64,000 nucleotides of DNA, from NCBI GenBank assembly GCA_949358305.1, contig OX442314.1, positions 25,110,001-25,174,000 of the forward strand. The letters run 5' to 3'. Both the position numbers and the translations under genes were made by a program. How positions within the stretch are numbered: position 1 is the first letter of the stretch; each line of letters opens with the position of its first letter. The notes below the pieces were generated by a model that worked only from the letters and a program-made list of their open reading frames with translations, had not been told where the DNA came from and searched no databases. This document shows, piece after piece, positions 33,475 through 63,748 of this stretch. The stretch is from Strigamia acuminata (taxonomy: Eukaryota).

Positions 33475-35099
33475 ATGTCAACCGACATGGACACCAATAG
33501 AAAAGGCAAGGTAAGTACTAAAACCCGAAATCGAAAGCAAAACTCGAAAATGACGCCATTTTAATTTTAATGATTCCAGCTCCAGATGGATTGCGAGCTC
33601 GAAACAAAAGTAACTCGCAGAAACTAGACAATAAGTTGTCGGGTATCTAAACGAACGATTTGTGCATTAATTGTTTGATTGTTTGCCAGCCCCCATGTCC
33701 GCCAACCCCATGTCCACCAACCCCATGTAGCCCCAGACCGATGGAATGTATCAAAATAGAAGCTCACAAGTGTAAAACCGCTGGTTCGGCCATAGTTGGT
33801 TGTGGTATGAACGGCAATACTCCGGGGTTCTGGGAGAGCATGAAACCTACCGGGGATTTGATGTATGCATTTGGGTTTATCGCATTTCCGCATCTGGGTG
33901 GCATTGGAGCTGCCGTAGTTATCAATAAAGAGATTAGCGAGTGGTACGAAGGAGTAAGTACAAGTAGAAGTAGAAGAGAAAATGGAAATTGAAGAGGTTT
34001 AAAAGTGACCGTTTGTTCGTTTTCTTGTAGAATGCTAAAAAACCGAGTTGGACGCCACCAAGCTGGGCCTTCGCTCCAATCTGGACGGCATTGTATTCAA
34101 CTATGGGATACGCATCGTACTTAGTTTGGCGCGACGGCGGTGGATTTTGTTACGGGCGAGCGAAAGGGCCTTTACTTCTCTATGGAACCCAACTAGCTCT
34201 GAACTGGGCATGGCCGTATATTTTCTTCAAGTCGCATAACTTGGGCGCAGTAAGTTTAGTCTACTAGTACTAGTTGTACTTGTATAGTGACATTGTTTTG
34301 TGTTTTGTCTTTGCAGGCGTTGACAACTGCTGGTGCGCTGTGGTTTTTCGTTGCTGCAACAACATGGGCTTTCTGCCCAATCAATCAAGCAGCTGGTTGT
34401 CTTATGATGCCATATCTACTGTGGGTGACATTCACTGGGGCAATTAATTTCAAAATTTGGCAGGATAATGGTGAAGATGACGGCGACTCTGGCAGCCAAA
34501 AAACCGGCGGAAGCCAAAAATCGAGCCAAAAGACCGGAAGCGGGAGCCAGAAAACCGGATCTGGATCCGGATCCGGGAGCCAGAAAACCGGAGCCGGGAG
34601 CCAGAAAACCGGAACCGGGAGCCAGAAAACCGGAGCCGGAAGCCAGAAAACCGGAGCCGGGAGCCAGAAAACCGGAGCCGGGAGCCAGAAAACCGGAGCC
34701 GGGAGCCAGAAAACCGGAACCGGAGCTGGGAGCCAGAAAACCGGAGCCGGGACCCAGAAAACCGGAGCCGGGAGCCAGAAAACCGGAAGCCAAGCAGGCG
34801 ATGGCTCTCCGAGCCGGGGCGGCAAAAGCGCCACTCAGGGCGGCGGGTCGAGCCGGGGCGATGCGAGCCAAGCTGCAAGTCGCCCCAGTCAAGGCGCTGC
34901 GAGTCGCCCGAGCCAAGGTACTAAACCAGGTAGTCAAGCGCCTGGCAGCCAAGCTGGTAGTAAGGCGGCGACTAATGCGGGCGGCGAGAGCGGTGAGGAG
35001 GGAGATGAAGGAGATGAGGAGTTGGAAGAAGAAGAAGAAGATACCGCAGCAGGAACGATTGGCCCGAACCAAATTGGTACCGATGACTCAAAAATATAA
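33475..35099 (+). CDS. TSPO: Translocator protein (TspO/MBR family) with long N- and C-terminal extensions
   Basis: Exons 33475-33510, 33580-33609 (less certain), 33690-33953, 34031-34249, 34317-35099, all phase 0; WY...[51 protein letters not shown]. Confidence 0.9.
34490..34790 (+). repeat. Coding 21-bp minisatellite (GGGAGCCAGAAAACCGGAGCC) encoding (GSQKTGA)n
   Basis: About 13-14 (S/T)QK units within the TSPO last exon. Confidence 0.95.
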
Positions 35100-43262: not shown

Positions 43263-44482
43263 TTGCTACGATTACGGCTTAGAAAATTTTCATACAACAG
43301 TCGCACAAAAGGAGGAGAAAAAATTCAGAATCATCTCGTTTTGCCATTATCATCATCTCGGTTTGATGGTGACGAAATCGAGCGCGGATCAAAGGGGGAA
43401 AATATGAAAATTTGGTGCGTCATTCTGGTCGTACGAGTTGATTGGGTCGATTCGCTTATAAATAAAACATAAATCAAACAGAGTATTGTAATTTCTGAAT
43501 TAATTGAACTCGTGAAATATTAAACTGCTTGATTCGTTGTGTGCTTGTGATTTTTAAAGGCTTTTATTTAACTTGACTTGAATGTTTATGTGTGTGTGTT
43601 TGTTTCAACTTCTGGTGTTGCTAGCGCCACCTAGCGGAACCTGTATAGTATAATGGAGGCCGAAATGTTCGCCCGGATACTTTTTTTGATTGTTTCGGTA
43701 TCAAAAAAGAGTTCTTTAAATTCTGAAACTGGACCAAACCAGGTTAAAATAAAAATTCCTATCTGTCCATATATTTTGTTTTTTAATATTGTTAAGAAAA
43801 AGTTCTTTATTAAAACGTTTTTTGGCACGATCACAGCAATCTGCGTTAGTAGCGCACTCTGGCGGCGATTTGAAGCACAAATATAAAAGCCTTTTTCGAA
43901 AAACTTGGTTTTTTTTTAAAAAAATAACGCGAATTAAATTAATATTTGAAAAGTGTTTAATTGTAACTTTTTGTAGTTTTATTTATTTACTTGTTTATCT
44001 TTACTTGTTTAATGTCAGGTGCGGAAGAGGAGAAAAAATGAATGGAAATCGATGAATAAATATGAGAATGAAAGAAATCAATAAGTTCTTGGTAATCAAC
44101 GATTATCGCCGTTAAACGTGAGTTTCTCTTTCTTTAAATGTTTTACAGTTTAATTAATATACGTTTAATAGAGTATAATTTTATAAAAGTATCTTTTTCC
44201 TCCATTCTAAATGTTTTAATTTTTTTTACCGATTCGATAGTTTCCACAAATTGTCACTAGTCGTTGCTGGCGGCTTTGGTACGAAAAATTATGTTAAAAA
44301 TCAGTCTTTGTGCTTCGCTTTGTGCCGACTGCCAAACAAAGGTGTTGTTGCTCGTATGTTTCGACTGTGCGACCAAACTAGTTTTTATTACGCATTATAC
44401 GGTTGTTTTTACATCTGCCCCAATGTTTGTCATTGTTAGGTTGCCTTGATTTCATTTGTTTGTGTTGTGTGTGGTTGTTTTC

Positions 44483-44559
44483 GGTTAGGTTAGGTTAGGT
44501 TAGGTCAGGTTAGGTGAGGACCTAGGTTTAGGTCTAAACCTAACCTAACCTGACCTAAC
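44483..44559. repeat. Interstitial telomere-type repeat, (TTAGG)n facing (CCTAA)n
   Basis: TTAGG x4, TCAGG, TTAGG, TGAGG ... CCTAA CCTAA CCTGA CCTAA. Confidence 0.9.
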
Positions 44560-44730
44560 TTGTTATTCAAACAAACATTTCAATATTGTCATCTTTGTGA
44601 TAGCATTAATATCACAGCATAACTGCAATTAACTATTTTTAGATATTAGTTTTATTGTAAAGCTTGTTGTTATTCCTGGTTATTACTCACCATAGGTACG
44701 ACAATTTATTAACTTTAAGTTGTTAATACT

Positions 44731-45341
44731 TGTCGTAACCTTGGTTCCGGTAAATAAACTTACACAATATCTTACTAATAACACCCTTTATTTCACACTT
44801 GTAATAATACAATAATAATACTTAACAATGTGGTCTCGGATCCTTGTTGGCGGATACGATTTGTTGCTGCACGGCAGTCTTACACGTGGCTTCTACTGTT
44901 GTCTAGGGTAATGGCGTCTGGCGAAACACGTGTTCGCAAACGCTTCGCTTCGATAGATATTACTATCGTAGTATTGCTACGATAAATATCTGTGACTGTG
45001 ATTTATAGATGAATTTGGCAACGGGCATCGATCCTCTATCAATCCGGTAAAACGGCCTGACGGTGAGGTGGTGATGCTAATGTTGCTCTGGTATCTATAA
45101 AGTGGGGGTTTCCGGTCAGACACGGGTTTAAATAGTGGCTGGACCGGAAATGACGTATTTGCATAAATTCGGGGAATTATGCAAATCTATGACGTTGTCA
45201 CGTCAGTCCCGCAGAAACGGTAAAACTAGTATAGCTAGTTTCCCTGCAATAATCTGACAATCATTTTACTATCAATATTAAAATTACTATTTATTAGGTT
45301 ATGATTAATTAAAACACTTTTGTGACCTCGTGGTCACCACA
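44731..45341 (-). repeat. 3' LTR (611 bp)
   Basis: Identical by eye to 55527-56137; minus-strand AATAAA at 44787-44792. Confidence 0.97.
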
Positions 45342-45343
45342 CG

Positions 45344-45353
45344 TCCCCTCCTC
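45344..45353 (-). other. Polypurine tract
   Basis: Minus strand GAGGAGGGGA-CG immediately before the 3' LTR. Confidence 0.9.
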
Positions 45354-45414
45354 AGCAATGTTGTTGGGGGATTTACAATAAAACAACAAACATTGCGAAA
45401 ACTCAAAGTTGGAT

Positions 45415-48343
45415 TTAGTTCGTTTCTTTCTCTGATGATCCCTGGGGAACGTCCGGAGGCGGAGGTGGAGGTAATTCTTCGGTTGCAGGTGGTTCAGCCA
45501 TCTCCGAAGTTGCTGGTTTAGTGAGCGGCGGAGTAGAAGTCAGGCGTGACGAGCGATCGCTTGGGTCCTCGAACTCCCCGATGAAGTATCGATCGTGGCC
45601 GCCAACTGGTTCGTAGGGGGCGCCGACTCGTTCATGTACCCAGATACGCGAGAGGAAGGGGGCCAGGCCTTGGTTGGTATGGTGGATCTTCTGGGCCTCG
45701 GCCGGATTCGTCGGGGCGCGGTGTGCACGCAGCAGACGTTGGTGCTGAATGAAATCGACGCCTGGACCCGCCTCTAGAGTTCGCTCCATCCATAAGTAGA
45801 GCGAGTGGCCGTGGTCGCTCGATCGCTTGATCTGGTTCTTCGTCTTCTGGGTCATCGTCAAACTCGGGTAGTAGTGTTTGAGTTGTGCGTCGATCGGAGG
45901 CAAAGGTTTCGGCTCTAATTTTTTCTTGGGCCGCAGGATCTTCGGTTTTGTTTTCGTCTTTCGGACGACTACTTTCACGCCTTCGATCGGAACCAGTCCG
46001 TCGGGGAACTTTATCGTCTCCTCTGGAGTGACTGCTGGGACTGTCTGGCTCGCCGGAGTCTCAGGAAGGGGTTCGTTGGTTAGTACGACTGGTTCGCTTT
46101 GTGGTACAGCCACAGCTCGGACTACCTGGTATGATCGTTCTGGGTCGGCATCTTCTGCAATTAATTGCGCGCGGACCTGGATACAGGAAGGAACCAATTT
46201 TAGCCATCGCTCGACGAGAGCGGGAGGCAGCTGAAAACTTTCATGTGCGACGACCGCCCAGGCTGCCAGTGCCACACGGGCGTTTCTAAACGTAGATGCG
46301 GCCAGCACTAGCGACATCATGTCGGTGATTACGACTGTCGTTCGTGCCATTCGTGACGGGTGATCTCGTCCAGGGCTGTTGGTGAACTCGATGGCCGCGC
46401 TTCGGATATTCGTCACGGCGATCTGCATCGTTCTGGCTTGGTAGTCATCGATGTCGGACACCATCTCTTTTGCTTGCTCGATCGTGGTTGTATCGAGGAA
46501 CGACTGTAATTCACACGATGTTGGATCAAACTGGGTTGTGGCTCGAATGTCCGAAGATCTGTTATTGGGGGGTGGTCTTGAAGGCGTTTGATTGCTTTCG
46601 TCGACTCTAACCACGGTATCTTGTCTTGAGTTAATTAAAACTCGTTGAACGTCGGGTTCGGGCTCATCCCAAACAATCGGTGTTCTCAACGTAGAAGTCT
46701 CGCTTCGCGTTTCTTCCGGTACGGCTGGGAAAATTGGTCCAAAACGATCTTGTCGTCGTTTGAGTTGTTCAAAGGGACTCAGCGATGTCGGGGCTCCGAT
46801 GACCACAGTTTTTCGGAATGCGCTGGGCAGACTAGAAGGCACGCTGGTGGCTGGCTTTGTCGGTGTTTTGATGAACACACTTGGCACCGAAGTTATGCTC
46901 ATTTCGATCGATTTAGTCGGCCGGTAGACAGGCTTCGATTGTTCATTCTTGGCCTTCAGGACTGCTGCTACCATGTCGGCTTCGGTATATTTTCTCTCTT
47001 GTTCCGGTACGATCATCGGCTCTACCGATTGTTTGTCTTCGATTGTCATCGGCACTTCTTGACAAACTTCTACTTGCAAAGTCTCTACCTCATCGACTCC
47101 ACGCGATTTCTCAAAGTGTCTCCATGTTTCTGCTCGTGGCCTCGACAACCTGAGACATCCGCGTTGGTTCGGTCGATTTCTGGAGTAGCGGTATGTCTCG
47201 ACCTCCCGTGGCTTCTCGACTCTGGGCTCTCGTCGCGGCGAGGGTTCTCGAGCGTGTCGGTAATAAACTCGAGGATGAGACTGCGATCGATCGTGCGTGT
47301 TGTACGACGTGCTTGGCTGATCCAGGCGTCGTCGCTTGTTGTCGTGTGTGTGATTTAATAATTCGCTCGAGAGTCGCTTCTCCGCTTTCTGTCGCTTGCG
47401 CCCAAAGATGCCCAGGTAGTGGAGCTGGTGCATCGCTTTCTGTGAGGTGATAAATCCGTGTTCGGGTCGCCAATTGGGAACGTCTGGTCTTTCTCCTCGA
47501 ACCTGGCTTAACCAAGTTTTTATCTCATCTGTCGAATACCCTGCTGGTTTCAGTATTTTGAAGAGATCTCGATACGCCGTTCGTCTGACTTCGTTGTAAT
47601 AGTCTCTGTGAATTCGTCGGCGTTCTTCGTCTGTAGCGGCGTTCTGCCACTTCTCGAGGACGGCCCACTCTTCAGACCCGCTTGGATAGTCTTTTTCCAA
47701 AAACTTGTTTGGGAGCGGTGCTGGTGCGTCGTCGCGTTCTGGAATTTCAGCCCTCAGTGCGTCGCGCATCTTTTCTGGGAAGTAGTGTATCAGGGTCTCC
47801 TGACTCGCCCAGAATCGCGATCGGGCTCTGGATGCGGTGAGCCGAATGCGCCATGGGCCGGCATCGACGTCGTCTTCTAACGCTCTTCGAAATGGAGTCG
47901 GGATCTCGCTCCTCCAGAGTGTGCCCGAAGATACGTTTTGTGGATCGATGGGTCCCCACGTAAGTTGGTGTTCCGGCTGAGGAATGAATAATAAAATTAG
48001 ATTTTGTCACATTCCGAATTTGGATTCAAGATGGCGCCATGGTCGACCATGTGCTTTTTTACACGTGTTGAATTTTTTTAATAAAGGTTTTTTTTCGTAA
48101 TTTTTTGTATTGTTGAAATAAAGATGTTTTCTTTTTACGAGTATTGTTTCACGTGTTTCTCGTGGTTTAGCCACGAATTAAATTCTTTGTTAAATTTACC
48201 TTTTCGTTACTATCGGGCTTTTCCCGATTCTCTTCTGGTTCAACTTCGTCCCATCTTGCGGGATCGTTCCACTCGTCTTCGCTTGGGTCCCGATCCATTT
48301 CTTCCTCCTCGTTGTCGGGTGATTGTTTCCAGTTTCTTCGCAT
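45415..48343 (-). CDS. Retrotransposon ORF3, unknown function; predicted exons 48343-48200 and 47976-45415, ~901 aa; not env-like
   Basis: The 784-aa ORF stays open 69 codons upstream of Met 47769 to an acceptor CTAATTTTATTATTCATTCCTCAG| at 47977; a 48-codon upstream exon starts TCAAAAAATG (48343) and ends AAG|GTAAAT; both junctions phase 0. Confidence 0.75.
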
Positions 48344-48590
48344 TTTTTGATTTAATTAGTTGGTTGCGATTTTTGTCAAGCACCTGTTTGTCGTCGTGAC
48401 AGAACGCGGAGTGCAAAGTTGAAAGGGTAGTCGAGGTTAAGTATCTTGATTGGCTTTCGTATGTAATACGTAGTTGATTGTTGGAGTCTCCTTGTGATTG
48501 TTTTTGTCTCTAGGAGGTCGGGGTAATTACGTCATATTGTTTTGTCGCTTTTGATTGGTTATGCCAACCATTTTGGATTTTGTTGCTTTA

Positions 48591-51500
48591 TCATGTCCTC
48601 CCGGCGATTTTACCGTCCTTTATAAACGGGTTTGGTACCTTTTTTCTTGTACTTTGTCGTATTATAGGTTTCGGTATTTTACTTCTCGATCGTGTGGATC
48701 TTTTAGTAATCTCTTTTTCTTTTTCAGGAGTTTTAGGAGTTTTTTCGTTAACTGCTGCTTCCTCCCCTCCTAAATTTCCATCTGGGGCGCTAGTTAGTTC
48801 GGCGCTGTCTGGAGTTGCGTGAGTCGTATTTTCGTTCAAGTCTGAAACAGTGGCGATGTCGTCGAACATATCTCGTATTGTGGGCGATGGAGATGGCTGC
48901 GTTTGGTCCTCGGCCCATTCTTCTTGTGGAAATTCCGGCAAGTAAGGCGTCAGTTCTCGAGCGTGGATTGATCGAAAATTTACATTATCGGCCAAACGTT
49001 GCAGAGAAAATGCGTTCCCGCCGTGGGCCTTGGTAATTACGTATGGGCCGTCTCGTTTGTCGGCTAAGCCGGCATGAATCCCTTTATCTGCACTGGATAA
49101 AATGTGAGTGTCCTTCCATACGAGATCGTTGATTTTGAAATTACAAAATTGTGTGTTCTTTTCAGACTTTTTCACTCGTTCGCGCATGTCAAACACATGT
49201 GACATCATATGTTGGTAGGTTGCCGAAATTGCTTGTTCTAGTTGATGTACGTAAATGTGAGGATTTTTTGGATCGACTTTTCGAATTCCTTCTGGGATGC
49301 GTGGATCCCAGGGCACTCGTAGCTCTCGAGCGAAGTTGAGATAAGCCGGGGAAAAGCCGCGGTTTCTCGAAATGGTCGTTCGGATGCTAAATGCTATTTC
49401 TTTAAGGAACTCGTCCCACTTGGAATGTACGTCTGTGAAAATAGCAAGCGCATATTTTATGTCGCGGTTGAGTCGCTCCACAGGATTAGCCCGTGGGTTA
49501 TACGTTGAAGTAAATGATGGTTGAATGTCGAATTGATTGCAGAAATCCTTGTATAACCTTGATGCGAATTGTGGGCCATTATCGGAAATTAATTTCCGCG
49601 GGAAGCCAAAATGTAACGCGACTTCGTAGAGGCACTGGATTATTTTCTGCTTAGTCGGGTGGGCCATCGGATACATCGGATACAACTCTGGCCATCCTGT
49701 TGCGACATCCATGATCACGAGTATGTATTTGTGGCTATTTGCACTTGTTATCTTAGGACCCATAAGGTCTACGCTCCAACAATCAAAGGGGGCGAACGGT
49801 CCAAGTGATAAATTCTCGTAGTTAGCCTTATTCCGAGGCTTGCAGGCTTGGCATCGTGGACAGTGTCGTATGAATCGTACGATGTCCCTTCTCATTTCGG
49901 GCCAATAGTACAGTTGACTGGCTCGATAGAGAGTCCTTGCCACGCCGGCGTGTCCGGCTAGAGGGTGGCCGTGTACCATCCACAGAATTTGTGTTCGAAC
50001 TTTTCTCGGAATTACGACTTTAATTGAACTCCCTGACTCTGTCAAGTCGTCCCGAAAGTTCGGATGGTACTTTAAAAGTAGGCCATCGTCTATCAGATAA
50101 GCGGAAGCCTTAATTTTGAACTCTTCTCTGGATTCTTCGCTGTAGACGTCGCTAGGGAAAGTCTCGTTGGTCAAGTAGTCATAGAACCTTTTACAGAAGG
50201 CGGTGTCGTTCTTCTGAGCTTCGATGAGTTCCTCGCGAGTAGGTGGGACACAGTTCGTGCCTTTACTCACGTGTGTAACGAAAGCTCGCACAAATTTATC
50301 CGAGATTCTGGGTTGGATGGATAAGTCGTAATTTGGTCTGGCATCTTTTGCCGATTGATACGCCCTCATCCAATATCCGACGTATTTTTCATCGGAAGAT
50401 TCCAACTTTTCTTTCGGCAGTTCATTCTGTTTTCTGAATTCCCACTTCCTGATCGGGGTGGGACAGTAAGCTATCCGAGAATCGTCGTCGCCGTCGTCGT
50501 CTGGCTCGTCGGGTTCTGAGGCGGGAGCTCTAGAGAGCGCGTCGGCGACTGTGTTGTACTTCCCTGGTTTATATTCGATTTGTAAGTCGTAAGCCATGAG
50601 CTCTAATTGCCATCGAGCCATCCGACCCGACGGTTCTTTAAGGCCCATGAACCACCTCAGTGCTTGATGGTCAGTCTGGACGGTAAATTTTGTGAATTCG
50701 AGGTAAGGCCTGAATTTACGGACTGCCCATACGATTGCCAAGCATTCGAGCTCTGTTGCTGAGTAATTTTTCTCGGCGGCCTGAATTTTCCGGCTGATAA
50801 AGATCGTGGGTACTTCTTGATGTATGCCGTCGATTTCGTGCATTTGCATCAACGCAGCCCCCAATCCGATTTTACTCGCATCCGTATGTAAGATAAATTC
50901 GCGATTCAAGTCGGGAAGAGGGATGGTTTTGGTGTCGATTAGCATTTGTTTGATTTTGTCAAACGCTGCTTCGCAATGGCTGGTCCAGTTAAATTTGATT
51001 TCGGGGTCTTTCGGCGGGTCCTCCTTTGGATTTATTTTCTGGACAGTCTTTAAAAGATCGGTGATTGGGGCCGCGACTTCCGCTAAATGTGGCAGGAGTC
51101 GGCCGAAGAAATTTACCATTCCTAAAAAACGTTGTACCCCTTTCACGTCCGTAGGTGCTGGAAAATCGGTGATTGCTCGTACTTTCTTTGGGTCTATGGA
51201 TAAGCCATTGACTCCAACTTTGTATCCAAGAAACGCAAGTTCTTTTCGGCAAAACTGGCTCTTTCCGGGGTGTATGTGGAGTCCGGCCTTTGCTAAACGA
51301 CGTATTACTTCGTCGATATGTCCGATGTGTTCGTCAAAAGTCTGGGAAACAATAATAATATCGTCCAGGTAAGCCCAGGCGTATTTATGTAGCGCGTCGC
51401 CCAAAACCTTCTCGATTAATCGTTGAAATGTTGCCGGGGCATTTACTAGGCCAAATGGCATGACATTAAACATTAATCTGCCCATCGGGGACCAGAAAGC

Positions 51501-53027
51501 GGTTTTTTCTTTGTCTTCGGCACGGAGTTCGACCTGCCAATATCCTTTCGACAGATCCATCGTTGTTACCCATTTAAATGGGGCTAATTCTCGAAGAATA
51601 GCTTCGATTGATGGCATCTGGACGGGGTCGATAACGGTAATGGCGTTTAGAGGTCGATAATCGATACACAGTCTGGGTTCCGATCCTGCACGCATGACGA
51701 GCACGATTCTCATCGCATATTCTCCTAATGCCTCGGACACTATCCCCTTGTCCAGCAAGTCTTGACAGATCGTCTTGACGATTTCGCGTTTTTGGGGGTT
51801 CATGCCCTTGAATGGAACTCGTACTGGCTTATCCGTACTTAATTCTATTTCGTGTTTTACGTAATTTGTCTTTCCCGGTTCTTTAGTCAGGATTTTTCGA
51901 TGTTTTTGTAGCATTTCTTCAAGTAATTTAGTCTGGGTTTCTCCTAGGTTCGCGTCCATGGCCAAATTGTGAGCCAAATTTCCTTCTTGGAGTCGGGCGT
52001 TAAAAGATTTGAAATCGTAATCTTGTACGAATTGCTTCAAATTTCCGCCTTTCCATTCGTCCTCTTCGTCGTTTGAATCTAGGAGTTCGGTAGGTACTGT
52101 CATTAGTCGGGGGTCCTCGCGTTTATCGATATAGTTCCAGGACCTCGTTATGGGGTTGGGCTGGATCTCCATTATGGCCATGATGTCCATACCCAAGAGT
52201 AGGACCGTGTCGTAGGTTGGTAAAACGATGAAAGGATGGGTTATTACGCCTCCCTCCCATATGACTTTTGTTGTCAGTACCCCTACTGGACGCACTTCTC
52301 CAGCAGCGGTTTTTACGGCCACATTTTCGCTTATTCCCCGTAGTTTGTCGCGTTGTTTTTTGTCCAATGACTCGTATAGATCTGAAGAGATAAAGGACCG
52401 GTCGGCTCCCGAATCCAACAAACCGATGAATTTTTTGTCGTTAAACTTGATTGTTAACATTGCGAGTGAGTCCTTCCGCTCTTTAGCCAAATTACAATGT
52501 AAAATGCGTTTCTTTCGAGGTGGGGCCTCCTCGTAGGCGTGAGGTAATTCTTGGAATGTTTCGGCTATTTTTTCGCCGTCCGCCGTATTAGTGGTTGGGC
52601 CACTATATTCGCGTTTTTCTGTGGTGAAGTAAGCCGTAGCAAAATAAACGACCTTTTTCTGTAATTCTTTTATTTGTTTTTCTAACCAATTGGTGTTTAT
52701 CCATTTGGCTTTTAATTCGTCTTCCGAACTTGAGTCGCTAATTTCTTTATTATTTGTTTCAATTTCTTTCGATTTTTTCTCTTTTAATTTGAGTTTTAAT
52801 TTGACTACTTCTTCCGTAATTACTTCGTTAATTGCCTGGTTAATTGTCGTATTCGTGGTAAATTTTGGGGTTTGGTCTTCCGGGCGTGCAGACAGATTTA
52901 TTATTTTTTCTCTGTCTGCTTTAACCAGTTTTTTGTCAGTTCTTCGAATTTGGCTGTTAGCTTTTCTAACAATGCGTCGTTTTTGGCGGCTTCCTTCTCC
53001 TCCTTCCTCTTTTTTCGTTTTGGACAA
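48591..53027 (-). CDS. pol: Pol polyprotein (protease, RT, RNase H, integrase), expressed by -1 frameshift
   Basis: LLDSGAD; LCIDYRPLN, DLSKGYWQ, MPFGL, YLDD; TDAS, ELE, TDHQAL; H-X6-H...CPRC; VDLMG/SDNG/VER; GPY motif; uninterrupted. Confidence 0.97.
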   Translation of the reverse strand: MSKTKKEEGGEGSRQKRRIVRKANSQIRRTDKKLVKADREKIINLSARPEDQTPKFTTNTTINQAINEVITEEVVKLKLKLKEKKSKEIETNNKEISDSSSEDELKAKWINTNWLEKQIKELQKKVVYFATAYFTTEKREYSGPTTNTADGEKIAETFQELPHAYEEAPPRKKRILHCNLAKERKDSLAMLTIKFNDKKFIGLLDSGADRSFISSDLYESLDKKQRDKLRGISENVAVKTAAGEVRPVGVLTTKVIWEGGVITHPFIVLPTYDTVLLLGMDIMAIMEIQPNPITRSWNYIDKREDPRLMTVPTELLDSNDEEDEWKGGNLKQFVQDYDFKSFNARLQEGNLAHNLAMDANLGETQTKLLEEMLQKHRKILTKEPGKTNYVKHEIELSTDKPVRVPFKGMNPQKREIVKTICQDLLDKGIVSEALGEYAMRIVLVMRAGSEPRLCIDYRPLNAITVIDPVQMPSIEAILRELAPFKWVTTMDLSKGYWQVELRAEDKEKTAFWSPMGRLMFNVMPFGLVNAPATFQRLIEKVLGDALHKYAWAYLDDIIIVSQTFDEHIGHIDEVIRRLAKAGLHIHPGKSQFCRKELAFLGYKVGVNGLSIDPKKVRAITDFPAPTDVKGVQRFLGMVNFFGRLLPHLAEVAAPITDLLKTVQKINPKEDPPKDPEIKFNWTSHCEAAFDKIKQMLIDTKTIPLPDLNREFILHTDASKIGLGAALMQMHEIDGIHQEVPTIFISRKIQAAEKNYSATELECLAIVWAVRKFRPYLEFTKFTVQTDHQALRWFMGLKEPSGRMARWQLELMAYDLQIEYKPGKYNTVADALSRAPASEPDEPDDDGDDDSRIAYCPTPIRKWEFRKQNELPKEKLESSDEKYVGYWMRAYQSAKDARPNYDLSIQPRISDKFVRAFVTHVSKGTNCVPPTREELIEAQKNDTAFCKRFYDYLTNETFPSDVYSEESREEFKIKASAYLIDDGLLLKYHPNFRDDLTESGSSIKVVIPRKVRTQILWMVHGHPLAGHAGVARTLYRASQLYYWPEMRRDIVRFIRHCPRCQACKPRNKANYENLSLGPFAPFDCWSVDLMGPKITSANSHKYILVIMDVATGWPELYPMYPMAHPTKQKIIQCLYEVALHFGFPRKLISDNGPQFASRLYKDFCNQFDIQPSFTSTYNPRANPVERLNRDIKYALAIFTDVHSKWDEFLKEIAFSIRTTISRNRGFSPAYLNFARELRVPWDPRIPEGIRKVDPKNPHIYVHQLEQAISATYQHMMSHVFDMRERVKKSEKNTQFCNFKINDLVWKDTHILSSADKGIHAGLADKRDGPYVITKAHGGNAFSLQRLADNVNFRSIHARELTPYLPEFPQEEWAEDQTQPSPSPTIRDMFDDIATVSDLNENTTHATPDSAELTSAPDGNLGGEEAAVNEKTPKTPEKEKEITKRSTRSRSKIPKPIIRQSTRKKVPNPFIKDGKIAGRT
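52888..52934 (-). promoter_or_regulatory. Programmed -1 ribosomal frameshift signal
   Basis: A_AAA_AAC in the gag frame (52934-52928), 8-nt spacer, 9-bp stem GCAGACAGA/TCTGTCTGC; pol lies in the -1 frame. Confidence 0.85.
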
Positions 53028-55441
53028 TCTCTTCTCCAGTGTCCCACCTCGTTACAGTAATTACAAGGTTTTGTGGTGGAGTTATCTGTTTTCGGGTACG
53101 GTCGTCTCACGAACTCTTTTTTCTCGTAGGGTTTTTCGCTTTTTGGGTTGTGGTGCTCCGTTTTATTCGCGGTCTTCATTCGGGGTCGGTAGCTGGGGGC
53201 GATTTCTTTCCCCATGTTAGCGTGGAGAATCTCTTCTTCTTGTTGGCTATCGCTGGTATCCCCTCCTGAGTTTTGCTCGGAGTTATTTTCTTCACTTTCC
53301 CTCCCTTCTTCGAGATTAGTTGCGTCGGAGTTCGTACTGGCTCTGTAAGCTTTTGGAGCCGGTATTGGGTTCGAGGCGGTTTTATCGTTCGCCTTTTTCT
53401 GGGGTGCGGCCTCGATTTCTCCGTTTAGGAAGCTACGCGACTGGATTAGTCTCCCTGCGTCATGATTTTTCGCATGAATCCGTTGTATGCGGAGCTGCGT
53501 TTGTGTTCTTTGCTCGGGCGTCAGGGCTTCCGTATAACGGTCGTCCACTTCTTCGTGATACTCGTTTACAAATTTCAATAGTTGTTCGAAACTGTCGGCT
53601 GTCGGCGCGTTCATGTCTCTCAGTACTTTCTTCGAAGTGTCGTTTAATCCCTTTTCGAAGATTACGTTCTGTGCATATTCGTCGAGTGGCGTATCCAACT
53701 CGTTGAACAGACTTTTGGCTCGTCGGAAGTAGGCTCGTAATTCTTCTCCTGTGGCTTGCTGCATGAGACTGACTCTCTGCCTAATTTCTTTTTGCGTCTC
53801 GCCGTACTGACTGTTGAAAGCGACGACAAATTGCTCCCAAGTTTTCAATTTTGCTTCCACGTACCAGGCTCGAGCTTCCCCTACTAACATTTCTGGCAAC
53901 CCCTTCGCCACCATCTCGTCGGGTTCGGCTCCGAGCCGCGAAATGGTGAGTGCCACTTCGTCGAGGAATTTATTCCCGGCTCTCCAAGTCCCGTCGAATC
54001 TCATTAGCCGCAGCTGTGACCATTTTATGTTTCGGTCTTTTTGTTCTAAGGCCCATTGATCGGCAGAATACTTTCGAAGAAGGCTCTCGTTCTGCCTTGG
54101 TCGATTTCTTAGATTTCGGTTTTGATTGATTTGGGAGTCGGCGCGTGCCCGCTCCTCGAGTGCTCTCAATCTAGCTTCCATTATGGGATCGGCTTGGTAT
54201 TGGTTCCCACAGTTCGGGGACGCGGCTCCGTTTTGTGGCGCGAATCGGTTGAAATTGTCGCTGGCTGAGTTTGGGTCAGTCAAGGTCGGTGTTGTCGAGT
54301 TTAGCTGAGACTCGGTCAGTCGCGTTCCGGGGGGGAAAATTCCATTTATGGCTGTTCCATTTAGGACCCCGTTCTTCTGTCCGATCAAAATTGTCGACTT
54401 TCTTCCGCCGTAGAGTTGCGATTTTAGTCTTGCGGCTTCTCGGTCGGCTTCGTTGGCGGCTTGTATTTTAATTCTTTCCGCCTCGTTTGCTGCGTCGACG
54501 TTGGCTTGTACCGTCTGGATATCTTCGAGGCTTGGCATTGCCAACCTGTTCCGTCCTTGCTGGTTTCTTAGCTGATTTTGTTGATTTATCAGTCTAATCA
54601 TCTCTGCGTTAGGATCCTTTGGCGTTTGACTGGTGTGGCCAGCCCTAGTAGCGAAGGATTGTGCGATTGCCCACGACTGTTGACCCTTATTATTTCGGCG
54701 ATCCTGTTGGAAAGCTTCCAGAAATTCGTTCTGGATTTCGACTGGCTCGTCCACTATACTATCCCATCCTTTAACGTTGATCCCTTTCGAGCTGAGGGAA
54801 TCGGCCTCGCTTTCGTCGTCGGCGTCGGACGTTCGGGTGGAATCGTAGGAGTCCGTCAATTGATTATTTGTTTTTTGACGTTTTACGCTTTTTCGACCCC
54901 TTCTAAGGGCTCGTTTCTCCGCTCGTTCTTTGGCAAGGCGAATGATCATGTTCATCTGTGCCAGCGGGTCCCCTTCTTCATCGTAAGGGATTCCCTCCAG
55001 TCGAGCGAGTTCATACGCTTCCTTACAGCTATCGATTTGGGATTTCTTCGAATTATAACCGTGCGTGATCGTGATACGATTACTCTGGTGATTATCCCGA
55101 TTGTCGAATAGGTTATACCCGTTCTGACTTTGTCCGGATTCTTCCTCCTCTTCTTCGACTTCTTCTTCGATTCGCTGATTTATCGGCGTTTTATTGGTTG
55201 GGTTTTTGCTAGCGGGTACTTTACTAGCCGGCGTTTTTTCGGTCGGCACATTCTCGGGTGGTTTTTCCGCGTGGTTTTCGTTGACTGGTGTATTTCCAGT
55301 CGTTTTTTCCCTCGTCGGCTCCGGTGGCTGCTTTTCTAACGCTGGACTAGCTAATGCTTCGGCCCTTGCCTTGGCGGATTCCATGGCTTTTCTTCGGGCG
55401 CTTGCGGTTGAAGGGTTTCGATTTTTCCCGCTTTTCGTCAT
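52901..55441 (-). CDS. gag: Gag (~846 aa from ATG 55441): long disordered N-terminus, capsid-like domain, CCHC knuckle
   Basis: GEARAWY...TWEQFVVAF...Q..GEELRAYFRR; CNYCNEVGHWRRDC. Confidence 0.93.
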   Translation of the reverse strand: MTKSGKNRNPSTASARRKAMESAKARAEALASPALEKQPPEPTREKTTGNTPVNENHAEKPPENVPTEKTPASKVPASKNPTNKTPINQRIEEEVEEEEEESGQSQNGYNLFDNRDNHQSNRITITHGYNSKKSQIDSCKEAYELARLEGIPYDEEGDPLAQMNMIIRLAKERAEKRALRRGRKSVKRQKTNNQLTDSYDSTRTSDADDESEADSLSSKGINVKGWDSIVDEPVEIQNEFLEAFQQDRRNNKGQQSWAIAQSFATRAGHTSQTPKDPNAEMIRLINQQNQLRNQQGRNRLAMPSLEDIQTVQANVDAANEAERIKIQAANEADREAARLKSQLYGGRKSTILIGQKNGVLNGTAINGIFPPGTRLTESQLNSTTPTLTDPNSASDNFNRFAPQNGAASPNCGNQYQADPIMEARLRALEERARADSQINQNRNLRNRPRQNESLLRKYSADQWALEQKDRNIKWSQLRLMRFDGTWRAGNKFLDEVALTISRLGAEPDEMVAKGLPEMLVGEARAWYVEAKLKTWEQFVVAFNSQYGETQKEIRQRVSLMQQATGEELRAYFRRAKSLFNELDTPLDEYAQNVIFEKGLNDTSKKVLRDMNAPTADSFEQLLKFVNEYHEEVDDRYTEALTPEQRTQTQLRIQRIHAKNHDAGRLIQSRSFLNGEIEAAPQKKANDKTASNPIPAPKAYRASTNSDATNLEEGRESEENNSEQNSGGDTSDSQQEEEILHANMGKEIAPSYRPRMKTANKTEHHNPKSEKPYEKKEFVRRPYPKTDNSTTKPCNYCNEVGHWRRDCPKRKKRKEEKEAAKNDALLEKLTAKFEELTKNWLKQTEKK

Positions 55442-55506
55442 TTTGATAGTTTGCAAATGTCAAACCGTAAGATATGTTTATTTAAAATAGTCTGATTAGT
55501 CAAACT

Positions 55507-55524
55507 ATCCCGGACAGGCCCCCA
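55507..55524 (-). other. Primer-binding site, tRNA-Pro type
   Basis: TGGGGGCCTGTCCGGGAT, 2 nt after the LTR; 16/18 to the canonical tRNA-Pro PBS TGGGGGCTCGTCCGGGAT. Confidence 0.85.
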
Positions 55525-55526
55525 CG

Positions 55527-56137
55527 TGTCGTAACCTTGGTTCCGGTAAATAAACTTACACAATATCTTACTAATAACACCCTTTATTTCACACTTGTAA
55601 TAATACAATAATAATACTTAACAATGTGGTCTCGGATCCTTGTTGGCGGATACGATTTGTTGCTGCACGGCAGTCTTACACGTGGCTTCTACTGTTGTCT
55701 AGGGTAATGGCGTCTGGCGAAACACGTGTTCGCAAACGCTTCGCTTCGATAGATATTACTATCGTAGTATTGCTACGATAAATATCTGTGACTGTGATTT
55801 ATAGATGAATTTGGCAACGGGCATCGATCCTCTATCAATCCGGTAAAACGGCCTGACGGTGAGGTGGTGATGCTAATGTTGCTCTGGTATCTATAAAGTG
55901 GGGGTTTCCGGTCAGACACGGGTTTAAATAGTGGCTGGACCGGAAATGACGTATTTGCATAAATTCGGGGAATTATGCAAATCTATGACGTTGTCACGTC
56001 AGTCCCGCAGAAACGGTAAAACTAGTATAGCTAGTTTCCCTGCAATAATCTGACAATCATTTTACTATCAATATTAAAATTACTATTTATTAGGTTATGA
56101 TTAATTAAAACACTTTTGTGACCTCGTGGTCACCACA
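55527..56137 (-). repeat. 5' LTR (611 bp)
   Basis: TG...CA; candidate TATA (TATTTAAA, minus) at 55923-55930 with octamer, ETS and CRE-like motifs upstream. Confidence 0.97.
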
Positions 56138-56929
56138 TACTACATTGCAAAATTTTAAGTTTATTAGTGTTTGTTTTTAAGTCATAGGTCAATATTATTT
56201 TGTTATCTATTTCTCGCCATTTTGCACGTGAGGCAGATTAAACATGTGATTTCACATTGCTCTGCAAGCCATCGAGGAGCGGCAGACTGATGGTCACAAC
56301 TCATTGATGGTGAGTTGGAGATGTTGCAGATGTGTAAATGTAAACTGCGTCTAACAGGACAATCCTCTAAACGCAAATCGAAACCAGTGCAAGCAACGGA
56401 AATGGAGACCATAGTGGAATTTATGATGCCACGAAATAACAATAAAAACACAATAAACAAACCACCTCCCAATGTAGTTAGTTCTACGTTACAGCACAGT
56501 TACTACGACTTGAAACACTATGAATTTTTTACCGTTTATTTTAGAATATCCGAAGCTGGTGCATCGTGTATAATTTACGCATATTTTACGGGCCCCCAAA
56601 AATGCAGAAAACTTAAAAAATCAAAAATTTGTACATAAGCAAAAATTAATTTTATTTCGGTTGAAATTTTGTGCATTTTTACAAATACAATACAAATACA
56701 ATACAAATACAAATACAATTCAAATAACAGTCTCCATTTATTTTGATTTCGGCTATTCAAACGATAATGTAATCTTTAAATCGTGTGGTAAATCGACAAA
56801 CGCGCTCTATTTTTTGTTATTTTAATAACGAAAAAACTTCTCACTTATAAGATAAACCTAGATAAACAATTTACAAAAGTTAATTAAACATTAAACATTA
56901 ATTTTGGTTCTCCCCTCCATAAATCGTGT

Positions 56930-56945
56930 GGCTCTAAAAAGAGCC
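56930..56945 (-). terminator. Histone 3' stem-loop of H2A copy 1
   Basis: GGCTCT-TTTT-AGAGCC-ACA followed by purine-rich ATGGAGGGGAGA (HDE-like). Confidence 0.9.
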
Positions 56946-56990
56946 GATCGCTGCATCTTATACAACGAAACCGTATTCTCTTCCAAGCTT

Positions 56991-57374
56991 TTACTTCTTG
57001 TCGGTCTTATCGGTCTTCTTGGGCAAAAGAATGGCCTGAATGTTGGGTATAACGCCACCCTCCGCAATCGTAACACTCGACAACAACTTAGCGAACTCTT
57101 CGTCGTTGCGTATGGCCATCTGGAGGTGTCGAGGAATTATCCGCGACTTCTTGTTGTCTCTCGCGGCGTTTCCAGCTAACTCCATAATTTCGGCCACCAG
57201 ATACTCCAAGACCGCAGCCAAGTAGACCGGAGCTCCAGCACCGATACGATCGGCATACTTTCCCTTGCGGAGTAAACGATGGATTCGACCTACGGGGAAC
57301 GAAAGACCGGCGCGCGAAGACCGCGATTTGCTCTTCGACTTGACACTGATGTTTCCTTTACCTCGACCAGACAT
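56991..57374 (-). CDS. H2A: Histone H2A, divergent, intronless, 127 aa (copy 1)
   Basis: MSGRGK...[22 protein letters not shown]...[14 protein letters not shown]...[15 protein letters not shown]...LLPKKT. Confidence 0.96.
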
Positions 57375-57612
57375 GACTGTATATGTATGAAAATCAAATG
57401 CTGAATGACAATCAACCAAATGAAACCGACTTGTGTAGTCAGTTTTGAGATACCTGTGAGCCAATCACAGGCCACACGAGTCCAGAACGATCTTAAAACG
57501 TCACCAACCAATAGTATCGTTGGACCCTACCGGTAGTGGTATTGTCATTTGACTGTTGGACACGTAGGATTTTGATTTTAAAATTGTGTTTTGTTTATTT
57601 TATTAGTTAATC

Positions 57613-57744
57613 ATGGGTTTGGGCAAAAAGAAAAAGCCAGTGGAAATCAACGCAGAAAGCAAAAAGCACTGCATACTCAATTCGAATGTCCGTTTGTAAT
57701 CAACTGTGTAAATGGAGTCTTCAATTGTAAAATGGAATTTCAAG
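57613..57744 (+). pseudogene. ELOF1/Elf1-like zinc-ribbon pseudogene fragment (copy 1)
   Basis: MGLGKKKKP.. then, after frameshifts, RRKQKALHTQFECPF / CNQ and NGVFNCKMEFQ, echoing ELOF1 L.TQF.CPFCNH...G...C..C.E.FQ. Confidence 0.55.
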
Positions 57745-57824
57745 GTGAGACACATCAGTACAGGTTTTCCTTATACTGTAGTTCTTTTCCAATTTGTTCC
57801 AGATATTTAGTTGCACATTTTTTT

Positions 57825-59582: not shown

Positions 59583-60145
59583 ATAATAATATCAACGATT
59601 ACGCACATTACCCACAAGAACAGACGTACAAAAAGAATTATTTACTGGTCTATGAGTGATTGCAAAGAATAGATAAATGCAATGTAACAAAGATATCTGG
59701 TAACACAAACTCTTAAAGTTAATATCACTTGTAAATTGTGACTACGCTTGCAAAGTCATTCAGGACTTGTGAGAGAAGTGCAGGCGCTACAATTAAAATA
59801 AATTGTGTATTTCTTTATTTTTGTATGTACAAATTATTTTTGTTTGCTGTTTATTAATTTGATTGTATTGTAGAGTAATTTTTAATTCGACAATGAGAAA
59901 AAATAGCGTGGAGAAAATTCTCTCAAATGTTTTTGCAAAATTTATAATAGCGTAAACACAAGTCAATTTCAACAAGAAATGTTAGCGCGGCAATTTAGAT
60001 TCATATTCTAGAACTGTGGAATTGAGATGACGTAGGATTTCTGAAAAATTCAGTTTCCATTTTACACCAAAATGTGAAACTAAATATCTGGAACAAATTG
60101 GAAAAGAACTACAGTATAAAGAAAACCTGTACTGATGTGTCTCAA

Positions 60146-60278
60146 CTTGAAACTCTATTTTACAATTGAAGACTCCATTTACACAGTTGATTACAAAACG
60201 GACATTCGAATGGAATATCCAGCGCTTTTTGCTTTCTGCGTTGATTTCCTCTGGCTTTTTCTTTTTGCCCAAACCCAT
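60146..60278 (-). pseudogene. ELOF1/Elf1-like pseudogene fragment (copy 2)
   Basis: MGLGKKKKPEEI, then a shifted frame reading RRKQKALDIPFECPFCNQLC. Confidence 0.6.
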
Positions 60279-60523
60279 GATTAACTAATAAACAAAACAC
60301 AATTTTAAAATCAAAATCCTACGTGTCCAACAGTCAAATGACAATACCACTACTGGTAGGGTCCAACGATACTATTGGTTAGATCTCGTGTTGGTGACGT
60401 TTTAAGATCGTTCTGGACTCGTGTGGCCTGTGATTGGCTCATAGGTATCTCAAAACCGACTATACAAGTCGGTTTCATTTGGTTCATTGTCATTCAGCGT
60501 TTGATTTTCATTCATATACAGTC

Positions 60524-60907
60524 ATGTCTGGTCGAGGTAAAGGAAACATCAGTGTCAAGTCGAAGAGCAAATCGCGGTCTTCGCGCGCCGGCCTTTCGTT
60601 CCCCGTAGGTCGAATCCATCGTTTACTCCGCAAGGGAAAGTATGCCGATCGTATCGGTGCTGGAGCTCCGGTCTACTTGGCTGCGGTCTTGGAGTATCTG
60701 GTGGCCGAAATTATGGAGTTAGCTGGAAACGCCGCGAGAGACAACAAGAAGTCGCGGATAATTCCTCGACACCTCCAGATGGCCATACGCAACGACGAAG
60801 AGTTCGCTAAGTTGTTGTCGAGTGTTACGATTGCGCAGGGTGGCGTTATGCCCAACATTCAGGCCATTCTTTTGCCCAAGAAGACCGATAAGACCGACAA
60901 GAAGTAA
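60524..60907 (+). CDS. H2A: Histone H2A, divergent, intronless, 127 aa (copy 2)
   Basis: Same as copy 1 except TIAQGGVMP versus TIAEGGVIP. Confidence 0.96.
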
Positions 60908-60948
60908 AAAGTTGGAAGGGAATACGTTTCGTTGTAGATGCAACGATC

Positions 60949-60964
60949 GGTTCTTTTTAGGGCC
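60949..60964 (+). terminator. Histone 3' stem-loop of H2A copy 2, with two U-G wobble pairs
   Basis: GGTTCT-TTTT-AGGGCC-ACA, then ATGGAGGGGAGA. Confidence 0.8.
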
Positions 60965-61238
60965 ACACGATTTATGGAGGGGAGAATCAAAATTATATGT
61001 TACAATAAATAAAAATAAATTCGATTTTTAATTAACTTTTGTAAATTGTAAATTGTTTATTGTTTATCTAGGTTTATTTTATAAGTGAGAAGTTTTTTCG
61101 TTATTAAAAACAAGAAACAATAGAGCGCGTTTGCCGATTTACCACACGATTTAAAGATTAAATTATCGTTTGAATAGCCGAAATCAGAATAAATGGAGAC
61201 TATGTTATTTGAATTGTATTGGGCCGATACAAAATGTA

Positions 61239-61396
61239 CAAAATGTACAAAATAAGCAAAAATTAATTTTATTTTGGTTGAAATTTTGTGCAATTTTTGT
61301 TACCAGTGCCGGAACAAACATTCCGGCACTGGTAACAAAAATTGCACAAAATTTCAACCAAAATAAAATTAATTTTTGCTTATTTTGTACATTTTG
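61239..61396. repeat. Perfect fold-back: 76-bp arms, 6-nt loop
   Basis: 61239-61314 is the reverse complement of 61321-61396; loop CAAACA. Confidence 0.93.
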
Positions 61397-61654
61397 ATTT
61401 TTTAAGTTTTCTGCATTTTTGGAGGCCCGTAAAATACGCGTAAATTATACACGATACACCAGCTTCGGATATTCTAAAATAAACGGTAAAAAATTCAGAG
61501 TATTTCAGGTCGTAGTAACTGTGCTGTAACGTAGAACTACATGGGGAGGTGGTTTGTTTATTGTGTTTTTCTTGTTATTTCGTGGTATCGTAAATTCCAC
61601 TATGATTTCCGTTGCTGGCACTGGTTTCCATTTACGTTTAGAGGATTGTCCTGT

Positions 61655-61795
61655 TAGACGTAGTTTACATTTACACATCTGCTACATCTCCGACTCGCCA
61701 TCAATGACTGTGACCATCCTCAACAGTCTGCCGCTCCTCGATGGCTTCACTTATCGTGACATCTTCTGATTTATTCATCTCACTACACCTTACAC
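61655..61795 (+). pseudogene. Fragment of the neighbouring LRR gene (mirror copy at ~56266-56350, minus)
   Basis: RSLHLHICYISDSPSMTVTILNSLPLLDGFTYRDIF* versus LRSLHICSTSVSPSMAVTILNRLPLLESFTYHDVF in the 62840 ORF. Confidence 0.8.
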
Positions 61796-62244: not shown

Positions 62245-63748
62245 ATGTTATTTACTCTAAAAAACATCTGCCTGCGACACGTTTCTCGCATGATATTTCA
62301 AGTCTGGAATTTCAATCGAAGTCAAACCACTGCACAGAAAGTTGCAGAGTTGAAAATACAAACGAAGGATTACTTCCATTTCCGTGAGACAATCTATAAT
62401 ATTAATGAGAATTACACTCTAAAAGAAAACCAATATTCTTTCAACAGCTGTTCACATATCTAAAGCAATCCTGGATTACATGTACTTGAAATGGGGCTAC
62501 TTCACAATCGGCCACGCAGTCTGGCTCCTGGAATCCAGATCTCCAATACTCAACCTCTGGTTTTGGCGCGACAATATAAACATGGAAGATTTATCCCTAT
62601 TAATATCACCTGAATCTAAAAAAGTAAAAAAAAAAAATTAAATCAAAATAAATCCAGGGATCCCTGGATCCGCCACAAACTAAAAGACGATAATTTATTG
62701 TCCCAAAAATCAGAATCTACAAGAATTAATAATCCCGCGACCGGTCGAGAAGATCCAAGCAGTTTCATCGTTCACCAACCTCAAAACACTCAATTTAACG
62801 AACAACACCGTAAACACGAGCAAAGACATCAAGAACCTCTTGTTGCAATGCCAGAATCTCACCAACCTCAACATGGAAGGTTGTGTGCAAGTCGGAAACA
62901 AACTATTCAAATCTTTAATCAAAATGAAACCCATTAAGAACAACCTACGAAGTTTACACATCTGTTCCACTTCCGTCTCGCCGTCGATGGCCGTGACCAT
63001 CCTCAACCGCCTGCCACTCCTCGAGAGCTTCACTTACCACGATGTCTTCGGATTCCTTCACCTCAGACACAACAAAAAGAACAAAATCGGCGACAATATT
63101 CACAATTTAAGTCTCGGGCACTTGAATTGCACTTCGTCCTTCCCAACGGGAAGGAAATTCGCGCCTGCGCGCAAGGATTTCAATTCTCTCAAGCAAGTCG
63201 AGTTGATTTTGCCTCAAAATTGCGAGTTGAAAGCGCTTAAGAGCATTTGCGAGAACTGCGCACATCTGGACGCTTTCACGCTTTGGTTTACGTCGGAGAG
63301 CGTAACTTCGAGCATTCAACCAAAAAAGAACTTCGACGATATCGTACGGTCGGTGTTTATACTCGGCGAGAACGAAACGTTCCCCATCAGCCAATTGAAG
63401 TTGATTTCTGTGCAGCACGTCGAGTTGAATTTCCTCTTCTGCAAAATGCCAAATCTGATAAAACTGTGTCTGGAAAACTGTAATATTTGCACTGAATACG
63501 ACCGGAGGATCGGTAAATCGCTTTCTAGTCTCTACGTGAACAATCTGCGCATTTTCGACGTGCGGGAGATCCTAATGCGATGTCCGTACCTGGAGGAATT
63601 GGAATTCGCGCATATTCAAATGCAGTCGGCGCTGTTCAGTGGGATCAAGTTGCCGTGTTTAAAGAAATTCTCTGTCTATCAATGTATGGGCCCGCCATTA
63701 GATTCTGTCAATGTCATAATGACTTATTTTCCAAAACTACTCGCGTAA
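62245..63748 (+). pseudogene. Leucine-rich-repeat (RNI/FBXL-like) gene with N-terminal BC-box-like motif; 5' part appears disrupted, 3' ~300 codons open
   Basis: CQNLTNLNMEGC, LRSLHI, MPNLIKLCLENC, CPYLEELEF, LPCLKKFSV; MLFTLKNICLRHV at 62245; stop at 62463 and an A-rich interruption near 62617-62680; AATAAA after 63748. Confidence 0.6.

Follow-up and report, generated by a model that had tools for sequence, protein, structure and literature searches.

A predicted two-exon orphan gene in the envelope position of a young Ty3/Gypsy retrotransposon

Introduction

The closest described counterpart of the gene reported here is CERV, a protein of the C. elegans element Cer1. As its published description presents it, CERV is a spliced nuclear protein of 517 residues in which three structured domains are joined by flexible linkers; it is partly encoded after integrase, was formerly regarded as env, and unspliced Cer1 RNA depends on it for export (PMC10309623). 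Additional genes in a comparable position are on record from other hosts. The sections of the literature used here, which include text on GyDB (PMC2238898), describe extra sense-strand ORFs that plant elements carry downstream of pol and ahead of the 3' LTR (aORF-3S; PMC7264820), non-envelope ORF3s of the GDSL and DEDDy types in bdelloids (PMC5408684) and extra non-envelope ORFs after pol in giant planarian elements (PMC6431247).

The element that we describe lies in a 64-kb window (the whole 64,000-nt stretch of DNA analysed) and carries a third gene, ORF3, between pol and the polypurine tract. Like CERV, ORF3 is predicted to encode a large, spliced, non-envelope Gypsy accessory protein with its last exon after integrase, a candidate nuclear localization signal and structured domains separated by linkers, and, as the available text on CERV also reports, no homologue outside its own host group (PMC10309623). 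However, CERV is assembled from five exons, the first ones taken from gag, whereas both ORF3 exons lie 3' of pol and have nothing in common with gag. CERV also has a Cys loop (M domain) and a G-protein-like G domain, whereas ORF3 has no Cys cluster and no significant fold match, its C-terminal models are weak, and its intron is dispensable. These distinctions come from the published description of CERV, in the parts used, rather than from sequence comparison; having no gag-shared exons, ORF3 is not a CERV member.

Errantivirus env genes, such as those of gypsy and ZAM, are likewise sense ORFs between pol and the 3' LTR that need a subgenomic RNA, according to the passages that we drew on (PMC13524379, PMC13486581). 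ORF3 differs in that it lacks a signal peptide, an anchor, a furin site and any match to the F/gB families, and in having its own ATG exon and an internal intron; the element is not an errantivirus in the envelope sense. The plant aORF-3S and bdelloid ORF3s resemble ORF3 as family-wide ORFs of the envelope slot, often of unknown role and typically with spliced messages, but those in the sections covered are membrane-type proteins or recognisable enzymes, whereas ORF3 is familyless, ~900 residues long and has an intron of its own. The main text of the bdelloid paper uses the word 'intron' 0 times (PMC5408684). In Oikopleura Tor3b and Tor4b, as in our element, pol and the third gene are set apart by a stretch where an internal promoter could lie, but the Tor third genes, as described in the portion consulted, are membrane glycoproteins, unlike ORF3 (PMC4402516). 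Finally, the MDG1-group proteins sORF1 and sORF2 are non-envelope accessory proteins of insect Gypsy elements, and sORF1 is nuclear; in the preprint text used they differ in being 70-110 aa long, encoded upstream of gag and unspliced (bioRxiv 10.1101/2025.03.14.642691).

A sequence-only reading of this DNA had proposed a 'complex' retrotransposon. That proposal needs a qualification: 'complex' retrotransposons with spliced or nuclear accessory proteins were already known, CERV (PMC10309623) and sORF1 (bioRxiv 10.1101/2025.03.14.642691) among those described in the sections used. Non-envelope third genes are a known kind; the ORF3 protein and its internal, dispensable intron are unmatched by anything that we found. 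Within the part of the literature covered, we found no account of an animal Gypsy element whose ORF3 starts from an ATG exon of its own and is split by an intron.

Results and discussion

A complete and recently inserted Ty3/Gypsy element

The element runs on the minus strand from 56137 to 44731 (11,407 nt) and is complete (Table 1). Its LTRs, primer-binding site, polypurine tract, target-site duplication and order of gag and pol are those of a Ty3/Gypsy LTR retrotransposon, and the primer-binding site resembles what we take to be a tRNA-Pro site. Pfam matches in pol (RVT_1, RT_RNaseH, Integrase_H2C2 and rve) follow the Gypsy-type order PR-RT-RH-IN, and a slippery heptamer (52934-52928) lies within the gag/pol overlap. 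The presence of an intact Gypsy element, as first read from the sequence, is borne out by the identical LTRs, the target duplication and the open gag and pol. Contigs of public runs X1 and X3 join 44725 to 56137 and are otherwise identical; this empty-site allele indicates that the insertion is recent. The element is intact, young and polymorphic, and public runs contain many related copies, with identities from >99% down to <90%.

A search with RT/RH gave 5619 of 7953 candidates at E<=1e-50. The nearest RT-RH identity among the sequences retrieved is 48-50%, and the element sits on a long branch in a tree built from 115 of 120 hits. It groups with support 98 in a set of 10 sequences whose sole named member is a tick protein, in a tree that holds no named clade references. 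A search of viral contigs with RT found none, and the capsid region of gag had 0 homologues among 971 candidates. The part of gag before the capsid region (55441-54000) is unusually long (~480 aa) and of low complexity.

Table 1 Features of the element and of the predicted ORF3 gene
Feature	Position	Strand	Details
5' LTR	55527..56137	-	611 nt, TG...CA; TATA-like site at LTR base 335, AATAAA at 550 (motif scan)
3' LTR	44731..45341	-	611/611 identity to 5' LTR
Primer-binding site	55507..55524	-	2 nt inside 5' LTR
Polypurine tract	45344..45353	-	read from sequence
Target-site duplication, 4 nt	44727..44730	-	twin at 56138-56141
gag	52901..55441	-	846 aa; Retrotrans_gag Pfam E 1.1e-7, one CCHC knuckle E 1.7e-5
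pol (PR-RT-RH-IN)	48591..53051	-	open; -1 frame relative to gag
Spacer / 5' untranslated region	48344..48590	-	acceptor-like sites ending 48510 and 48384
ORF3 exon 1	48200..48343	-	144 nt, 48 codons, ends AAG/GTAAAT, phase 0
ORF3 intron	47977..48199	-	223 nt, GT-AG, phase 0; CTAAT at 48000-47996, T-rich tract
ORF3 exon 2	45415..47976	-	853 codons + stop
Donor-like site TGT/GTAAGT in U5	55554..55562	-	intron would start 55559; candidate first donor, inferred

Gene model and splice signals of ORF3

The sequence-only reading had split the third gene into two exons around a 223-nt intron with a CTAAT motif and a CAG at 47977, and had divided exon 2 into 69 and 784 codons; these positions all hold on the minus strand. 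The first Met of exon 2 is codon 70, which leaves 784 codons, and the 69 codons before it contain no ATG. The exon 2 frame stays open for another 10 codons upstream of the acceptor (863 aa from stop to stop), also without ATG, and the joined exons give 901 aa. None of 5000 shuffles kept the 853-codon frame open, and chance cannot account for it. Taken alone, the 69-codon extension was open in 402 of the 5000 and exon 1 in 680, so that open frames by themselves do not prove either piece.

Of the 15 acceptor-like sites that the element contains, the one at 47977 has the highest T content, and it is similar to three host acceptors within the window; the donor at 48199 is one of two in the element that match 8 of 9 consensus positions. 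Splicing best explains why a coding stretch without ATG should start at an acceptor and why the coding exon before it should finish at a donor of the same phase. We therefore consider it very probable that the two exons are joined in this way, which would be the simplest route to translation of both.

The intron is also predicted to be structured. It folds better than 199 of 200 shuffles (z -2.65), with hairpins that cover the donor, the branch and the pyrimidine tract. A listed variant at 48008 changes a G-U pair of the 3' hairpin to A-U, and the common variant at intron position +6, described below, breaks a pair in the donor hairpin. The spacer upstream of exon 1 does not fold above shuffles (31 of 200 were equally good), and a CRE-like hexamer common to the LTR and the spacer is frequent, with 32 matches in the window. 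Inside the intron, a conserved palindromic stretch (48020-48055) is matched by contigs from other places in the genome, which then diverge. It holds what we presume to be a YY1/Pho-like motif and is possibly a promoter or RNA element.

Family copies preserve the reading frame on both sides of the intron

Contigs from two runs of two studies, whose variants come from a few subfamilies, were compared with 47760-48420, and the counts that follow refer to the 40 of 42 variants and 12 of 18 indels listed. All five listed variants in exon 1 are synonymous third-position changes (P 0.0024 against 0.30), and 15 of the 19 listed in the 69-codon extension are synonymous (P 3.5e-5); under neutrality, transitions are expected to be silent in 30-32% of cases. 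Together the two pieces have 20 synonymous changes among 24 listed variants (P 3e-7 against 0.32), a share similar to that in gag and pol (21 of 27), and the rough pN/pS is 0 for exon 1, 0.13 for the extension and 0.14 for gag and pol. The 12 listed indels all fall outside coding sequence: each is in the intron, in the 5' untranslated region or in the run of A that precedes the ATG. The middle of the intron is variable and its 3' part, with the branch-like CTAAT and T-rich tract, is conserved. None of the variants listed alters the ATG codon, the GT, the CTAAT or the AG, and the loose ends of diverged copies retain the branch-like motif and the T-rich tract. Most other copies carry A rather than T at intron position +6 (48194), which makes a weaker donor.

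Thus exon 1 and the ATG-less extension are, on the pattern of variation, coding and constrained in one predicted common frame. The acidic 48-codon exon, its shared phase and a length of ~901 aa for the exons if joined are confirmed as originally proposed, with coding indicated by the five synonymous changes. The related copies, with splice signals untouched in the listed variants and mostly synonymous change in exon 1 and the extension, give no sign of neutral decay there. On the whole, ORF3 has good support as an orphan gene of two exons carried by an active element.

The same variants bear on whether the exons are joined at all. Exon 1 could instead be a separate ORF of 57 codons, given that its frame reads through the donor and meets a stop 9 codons later, and exon 2 could use another donor or a non-ATG start; phase-0 donor-like sites are available at 53110, 51446, 51116, 50270 and 48983, several of them in pol. 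However, the sole listed variant in the 9 read-through codons (48194) alters an amino acid, whereas the five upstream are all silent; the stretch between the exons is rich in indels; and the donor and acceptor, 223 nt apart and in phase, are among the best of the element. We regard this reading as most improbable and retain the spliced model.

Diverged copies (82-86% identical) also hold pieces of ORF3, and these are as diverged as their pol, which indicates that the third gene has travelled with the family. Neither of the 2 listed DNA joints skips exactly the 223-nt intron, in contigs of a kind that drops rare variants. In organisms B and C, 0 contigs cover the intron region, which is not proof of absence. 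X1 and X3 contain a diverged copy that lacks 422 nt (47842-48263), so that the intron is gone together with part of exon 1 and the beginning of exon 2. As a splice (a skip from 47841 to 48264) it was rejected, having no GT-AG, and it is a DNA deletion.

The ORF3 protein is predicted not to be an envelope

Exon 1 is acidic, with 19 Asp/Glu among its 48 residues (40%), and has three Trp. It is followed by a helical domain, two basic clusters (exon-2 residues 192-219) and an Arg-rich stretch, and then by a Ser/Thr/Pro linker, a second helical block, a Lys-rich stretch, a third block and a Pro-rich acidic tail. Hydropathy and sequence agree with the sequence-only reading of a protein with NLS-like basic clusters and neither signal peptide nor clean membrane anchor: the N-termini are hydrophilic (judged by hydropathy only) and the best 19-residue hydropathy is 1.27. 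There is no furin site (R-x-K/R-R), and the 4 Cys in 853 aa are scattered and form no Cys frame. An NES-like pattern, which is permissive, has 10 matches. Judged by these features the product is not an envelope and is likely soluble.

A highly diverged or decayed envelope or fusogen would suit the position between pol and the polypurine tract and the one mildly hydrophobic stretch of the protein (exon-2 residues 543-590). Set against this are the features just given, a search of Pfam envelope families, including F-type and gB-type fusogens, that gave none for ORF3 at E<=1, and an N-terminal third that is conserved rather than decaying. We find an envelope origin scarcely credible.

AlphaFold2 predictions from the single sequence gave a mean pLDDT of 39.1 for the whole of exon 2 and 59.4 for its residues 51-219. 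A helical region at residues ~60-160, ahead of the basic clusters, is partly confident (pLDDT 70-84); weak helical blocks lie near residues 490-600 and 695-770, separated by long disordered linkers. Three domains are predicted on this basis, at exon-2 residues ~1-215, 480-630 and 685-815. Fold searches gave no match at E<=0.001 (best Z 3.9), a result by which neither a new nor a different fold is shown.

Homology searches with ORF3 were negative throughout. We found 0 homologues among 7108 candidates (near lengths only) and 0 among 1,835,955,588 representatives at E<=0.001. None of 12 pattern matches in viral contigs resembled ORF3, exact look-ups of its sequence gave 0 of 4, and no ORF3-like piece was present in 120 retrieved Pol-type proteins or 22 metagenome loci. 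Pfam gave only the sub-threshold families DUF6235 and TetR_C_6, NCBIfam and PHROGs no significant match, and PDB sequences best E values of 0.23 and 1.2; ORF3 and gag had no blastp match at E<=1. No RNA-binding domain, and no sequence or fold link to CERV or Rev, was found in Pfam, PDB and fold searches. A homeodomain-like helix, seen by eye, was unsupported by Pfam, PDB sequence or fold search, and for actin-nucleator-like motifs Pfam gave neither WH2 nor any related domain with E thresholds of up to 1-10. By sequence, the ORF3 protein is without a family in all libraries searched, in keeping with the original description of a non-envelope protein of no recognised family.

Such an orphan fits an arms-race protein, and the spliced gene could encode an antagonist of host defence that counters silencing through small-RNA or chromatin pathways, in a family that is diverse and recently active. 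The middle part of ORF3 tolerates amino-acid change: among the 40 of 1488 rows listed for the ORF3 body, 5 of 9 visible variants are non-synonymous and 4 synonymous (P 0.37), a count that by itself gives no evidence of constraint in this part. However, nine variants are too few for positive selection, most of them lie in predicted linkers, and no silencing-linked domain was found. An anti-silencing role appears quite unlikely.

Possible expression and function of ORF3

ORF3 would require a subgenomic RNA. This RNA could reach exon 1 by splicing from the U5 donor (55559) to the acceptor-like site at 48510 or 48384; alternatively, an internal promoter in the spacer (48344..48590) might drive it. 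There is no ATG in the leader from the TATA-like site to the U5 donor-like site, or between the two acceptor-like sites and exon 1, so the exon-1 ATG would be the first ATG by either route. The 223-nt intron would then, in all likelihood, be removed from the ORF3 message. Its removal from genomic RNA leaves all genes and priming sites intact. Because it is dispensable for gag, pol and ORF3, yet is retained in DNA copies, the RNA that is copied appears to be unspliced.

The basic clusters would probably carry the protein to the nucleus, where its helical and Arg-rich N-terminal third might bind element RNA or chromatin. By analogy with Rev and CERV, we tentatively propose that ORF3 may be a nuclear accessory regulator that shifts output toward full-length, unspliced RNA. 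In the feedback that we envisage, quite possible but far from assured as a whole, default splicing would first make the regulator, which would then favour full-length RNA and its nuclear exit. The weaker donor in most copies and the folded splice signals count against this proposal, since weak splicing in cis could alone leave enough unspliced RNA without any protein. Simple retroviruses leave unspliced RNA by weak splicing alone, and all spliced LTR elements as a rule package their unspliced RNA, for which they need no accessory protein. From the persistence of the intron, the sequence-only reading had argued for a 'complex' retrotransposon with a regulated accessory protein; the constrained, two-exon, non-envelope gene on which that claim drew stands, but unspliced packaging by itself does not call for an accessory protein.

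The same spliced nuclear protein could instead be a transcriptional transactivator of the LTR, working much like Tas of foamy viruses or Tax of HTLV. Exon 1 would then activate transcription, and DNA would be bound by the helical domain next to the basic clusters. The acidic, Trp-bearing exon 1 has no listed amino-acid change, and the partly confident helical region precedes the basic clusters. In the sections used, Tor elements have an internal promoter for the third ORF (PMC4402516), and MDG1 sORF1 is described as a nuclear, helix-turn-helix-like accessory protein (bioRxiv 10.1101/2025.03.14.642691). However, no match to a DNA-binding family or fold was found, and the homeodomain-like helix lacks support, so that a transactivator seems unlikely.

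Alternatively, ORF3 might be a cytoplasmic, particle-associated or trafficking factor that is not a fusogen. It could, for example, be an adaptor to actin or to motors with whose help capsids reach the nucleus or pass from cell to cell. It occupies the envelope slot, and its acidic Trp-bearing N-terminus and poly-Pro acidic tail are reminiscent of actin-nucleation promoter motifs. Cell-to-cell spread without an envelope exists, as the available text on sORF2 describes (bioRxiv 10.1101/2025.03.14.642691). Against such a role, the Pfam search for WH2 and related domains was negative, there is no membrane anchor, and the paired basic clusters point to nuclear import; we hold it very unlikely.

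In its widest form, the proposed Rev/CERV-like reading would mean that a 'complex' retrotransposon arose independently in an animal. A deep lineage within Gypsy would have made a new ~900-aa nuclear regulator family and would express it, in the manner of tat/rev or tax/rex, from an RNA spliced twice to join the LTR leader, the ATG exon and the main exon; the dispensable intron would be both switch and response element, through which this protein licenses unspliced genomic RNA for export and packaging. We consider this whole picture doubtful.

An intron that can be lost harmlessly should vanish at the first reverse transcription of spliced RNA, yet this one persists across subfamilies ~15-18% apart, and the element offers a compact active system for studying how retroelements sort spliced from unspliced RNA. 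ORF3 would also represent a large protein family that is absent from every library searched. If it is Rev/CERV-like, gene regulation in the retroviral style would have been invented independently once more outside retroviruses. Envelope-slot ORFs of animal Gypsy elements can be given the wrong start and the wrong function when internal introns are ignored.

Genomic neighbourhood

Genes near the element in the window are TMTC, TspO, RabGAP-TBC and H2A, which mark the host as an animal, plausibly an arthropod. The TspO/MBR exon (34260-35099) continues in frame into a GC-rich 21-nt tandem array (~34492-34814). A high-copy dispersed repeat with TTAGG-type pentamers (44437-44560) lies beside the 3' LTR. 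In the U3 of both LTRs (45186-45318 and 55982-56114), contigs of X2, X3 and X6 skip 131 nt with GT..AG ends on the sense strand of the element; what is skipped might be part of U3 that has diverged, or else a piece resembling an intron that was lost. Adjoining the 5' LTR is a large inverted duplication (56301-57821 and 60069-61707), with arms 89-99% complementary, that holds two H2A genes of divergent sequence (57374-56991, minus strand; 60524-60907, plus strand). A 354-aa open frame at 62684-63748 has weak matches to leucine-rich repeats of the F-box type, and a 113-nt piece of it is repeated at 61670.
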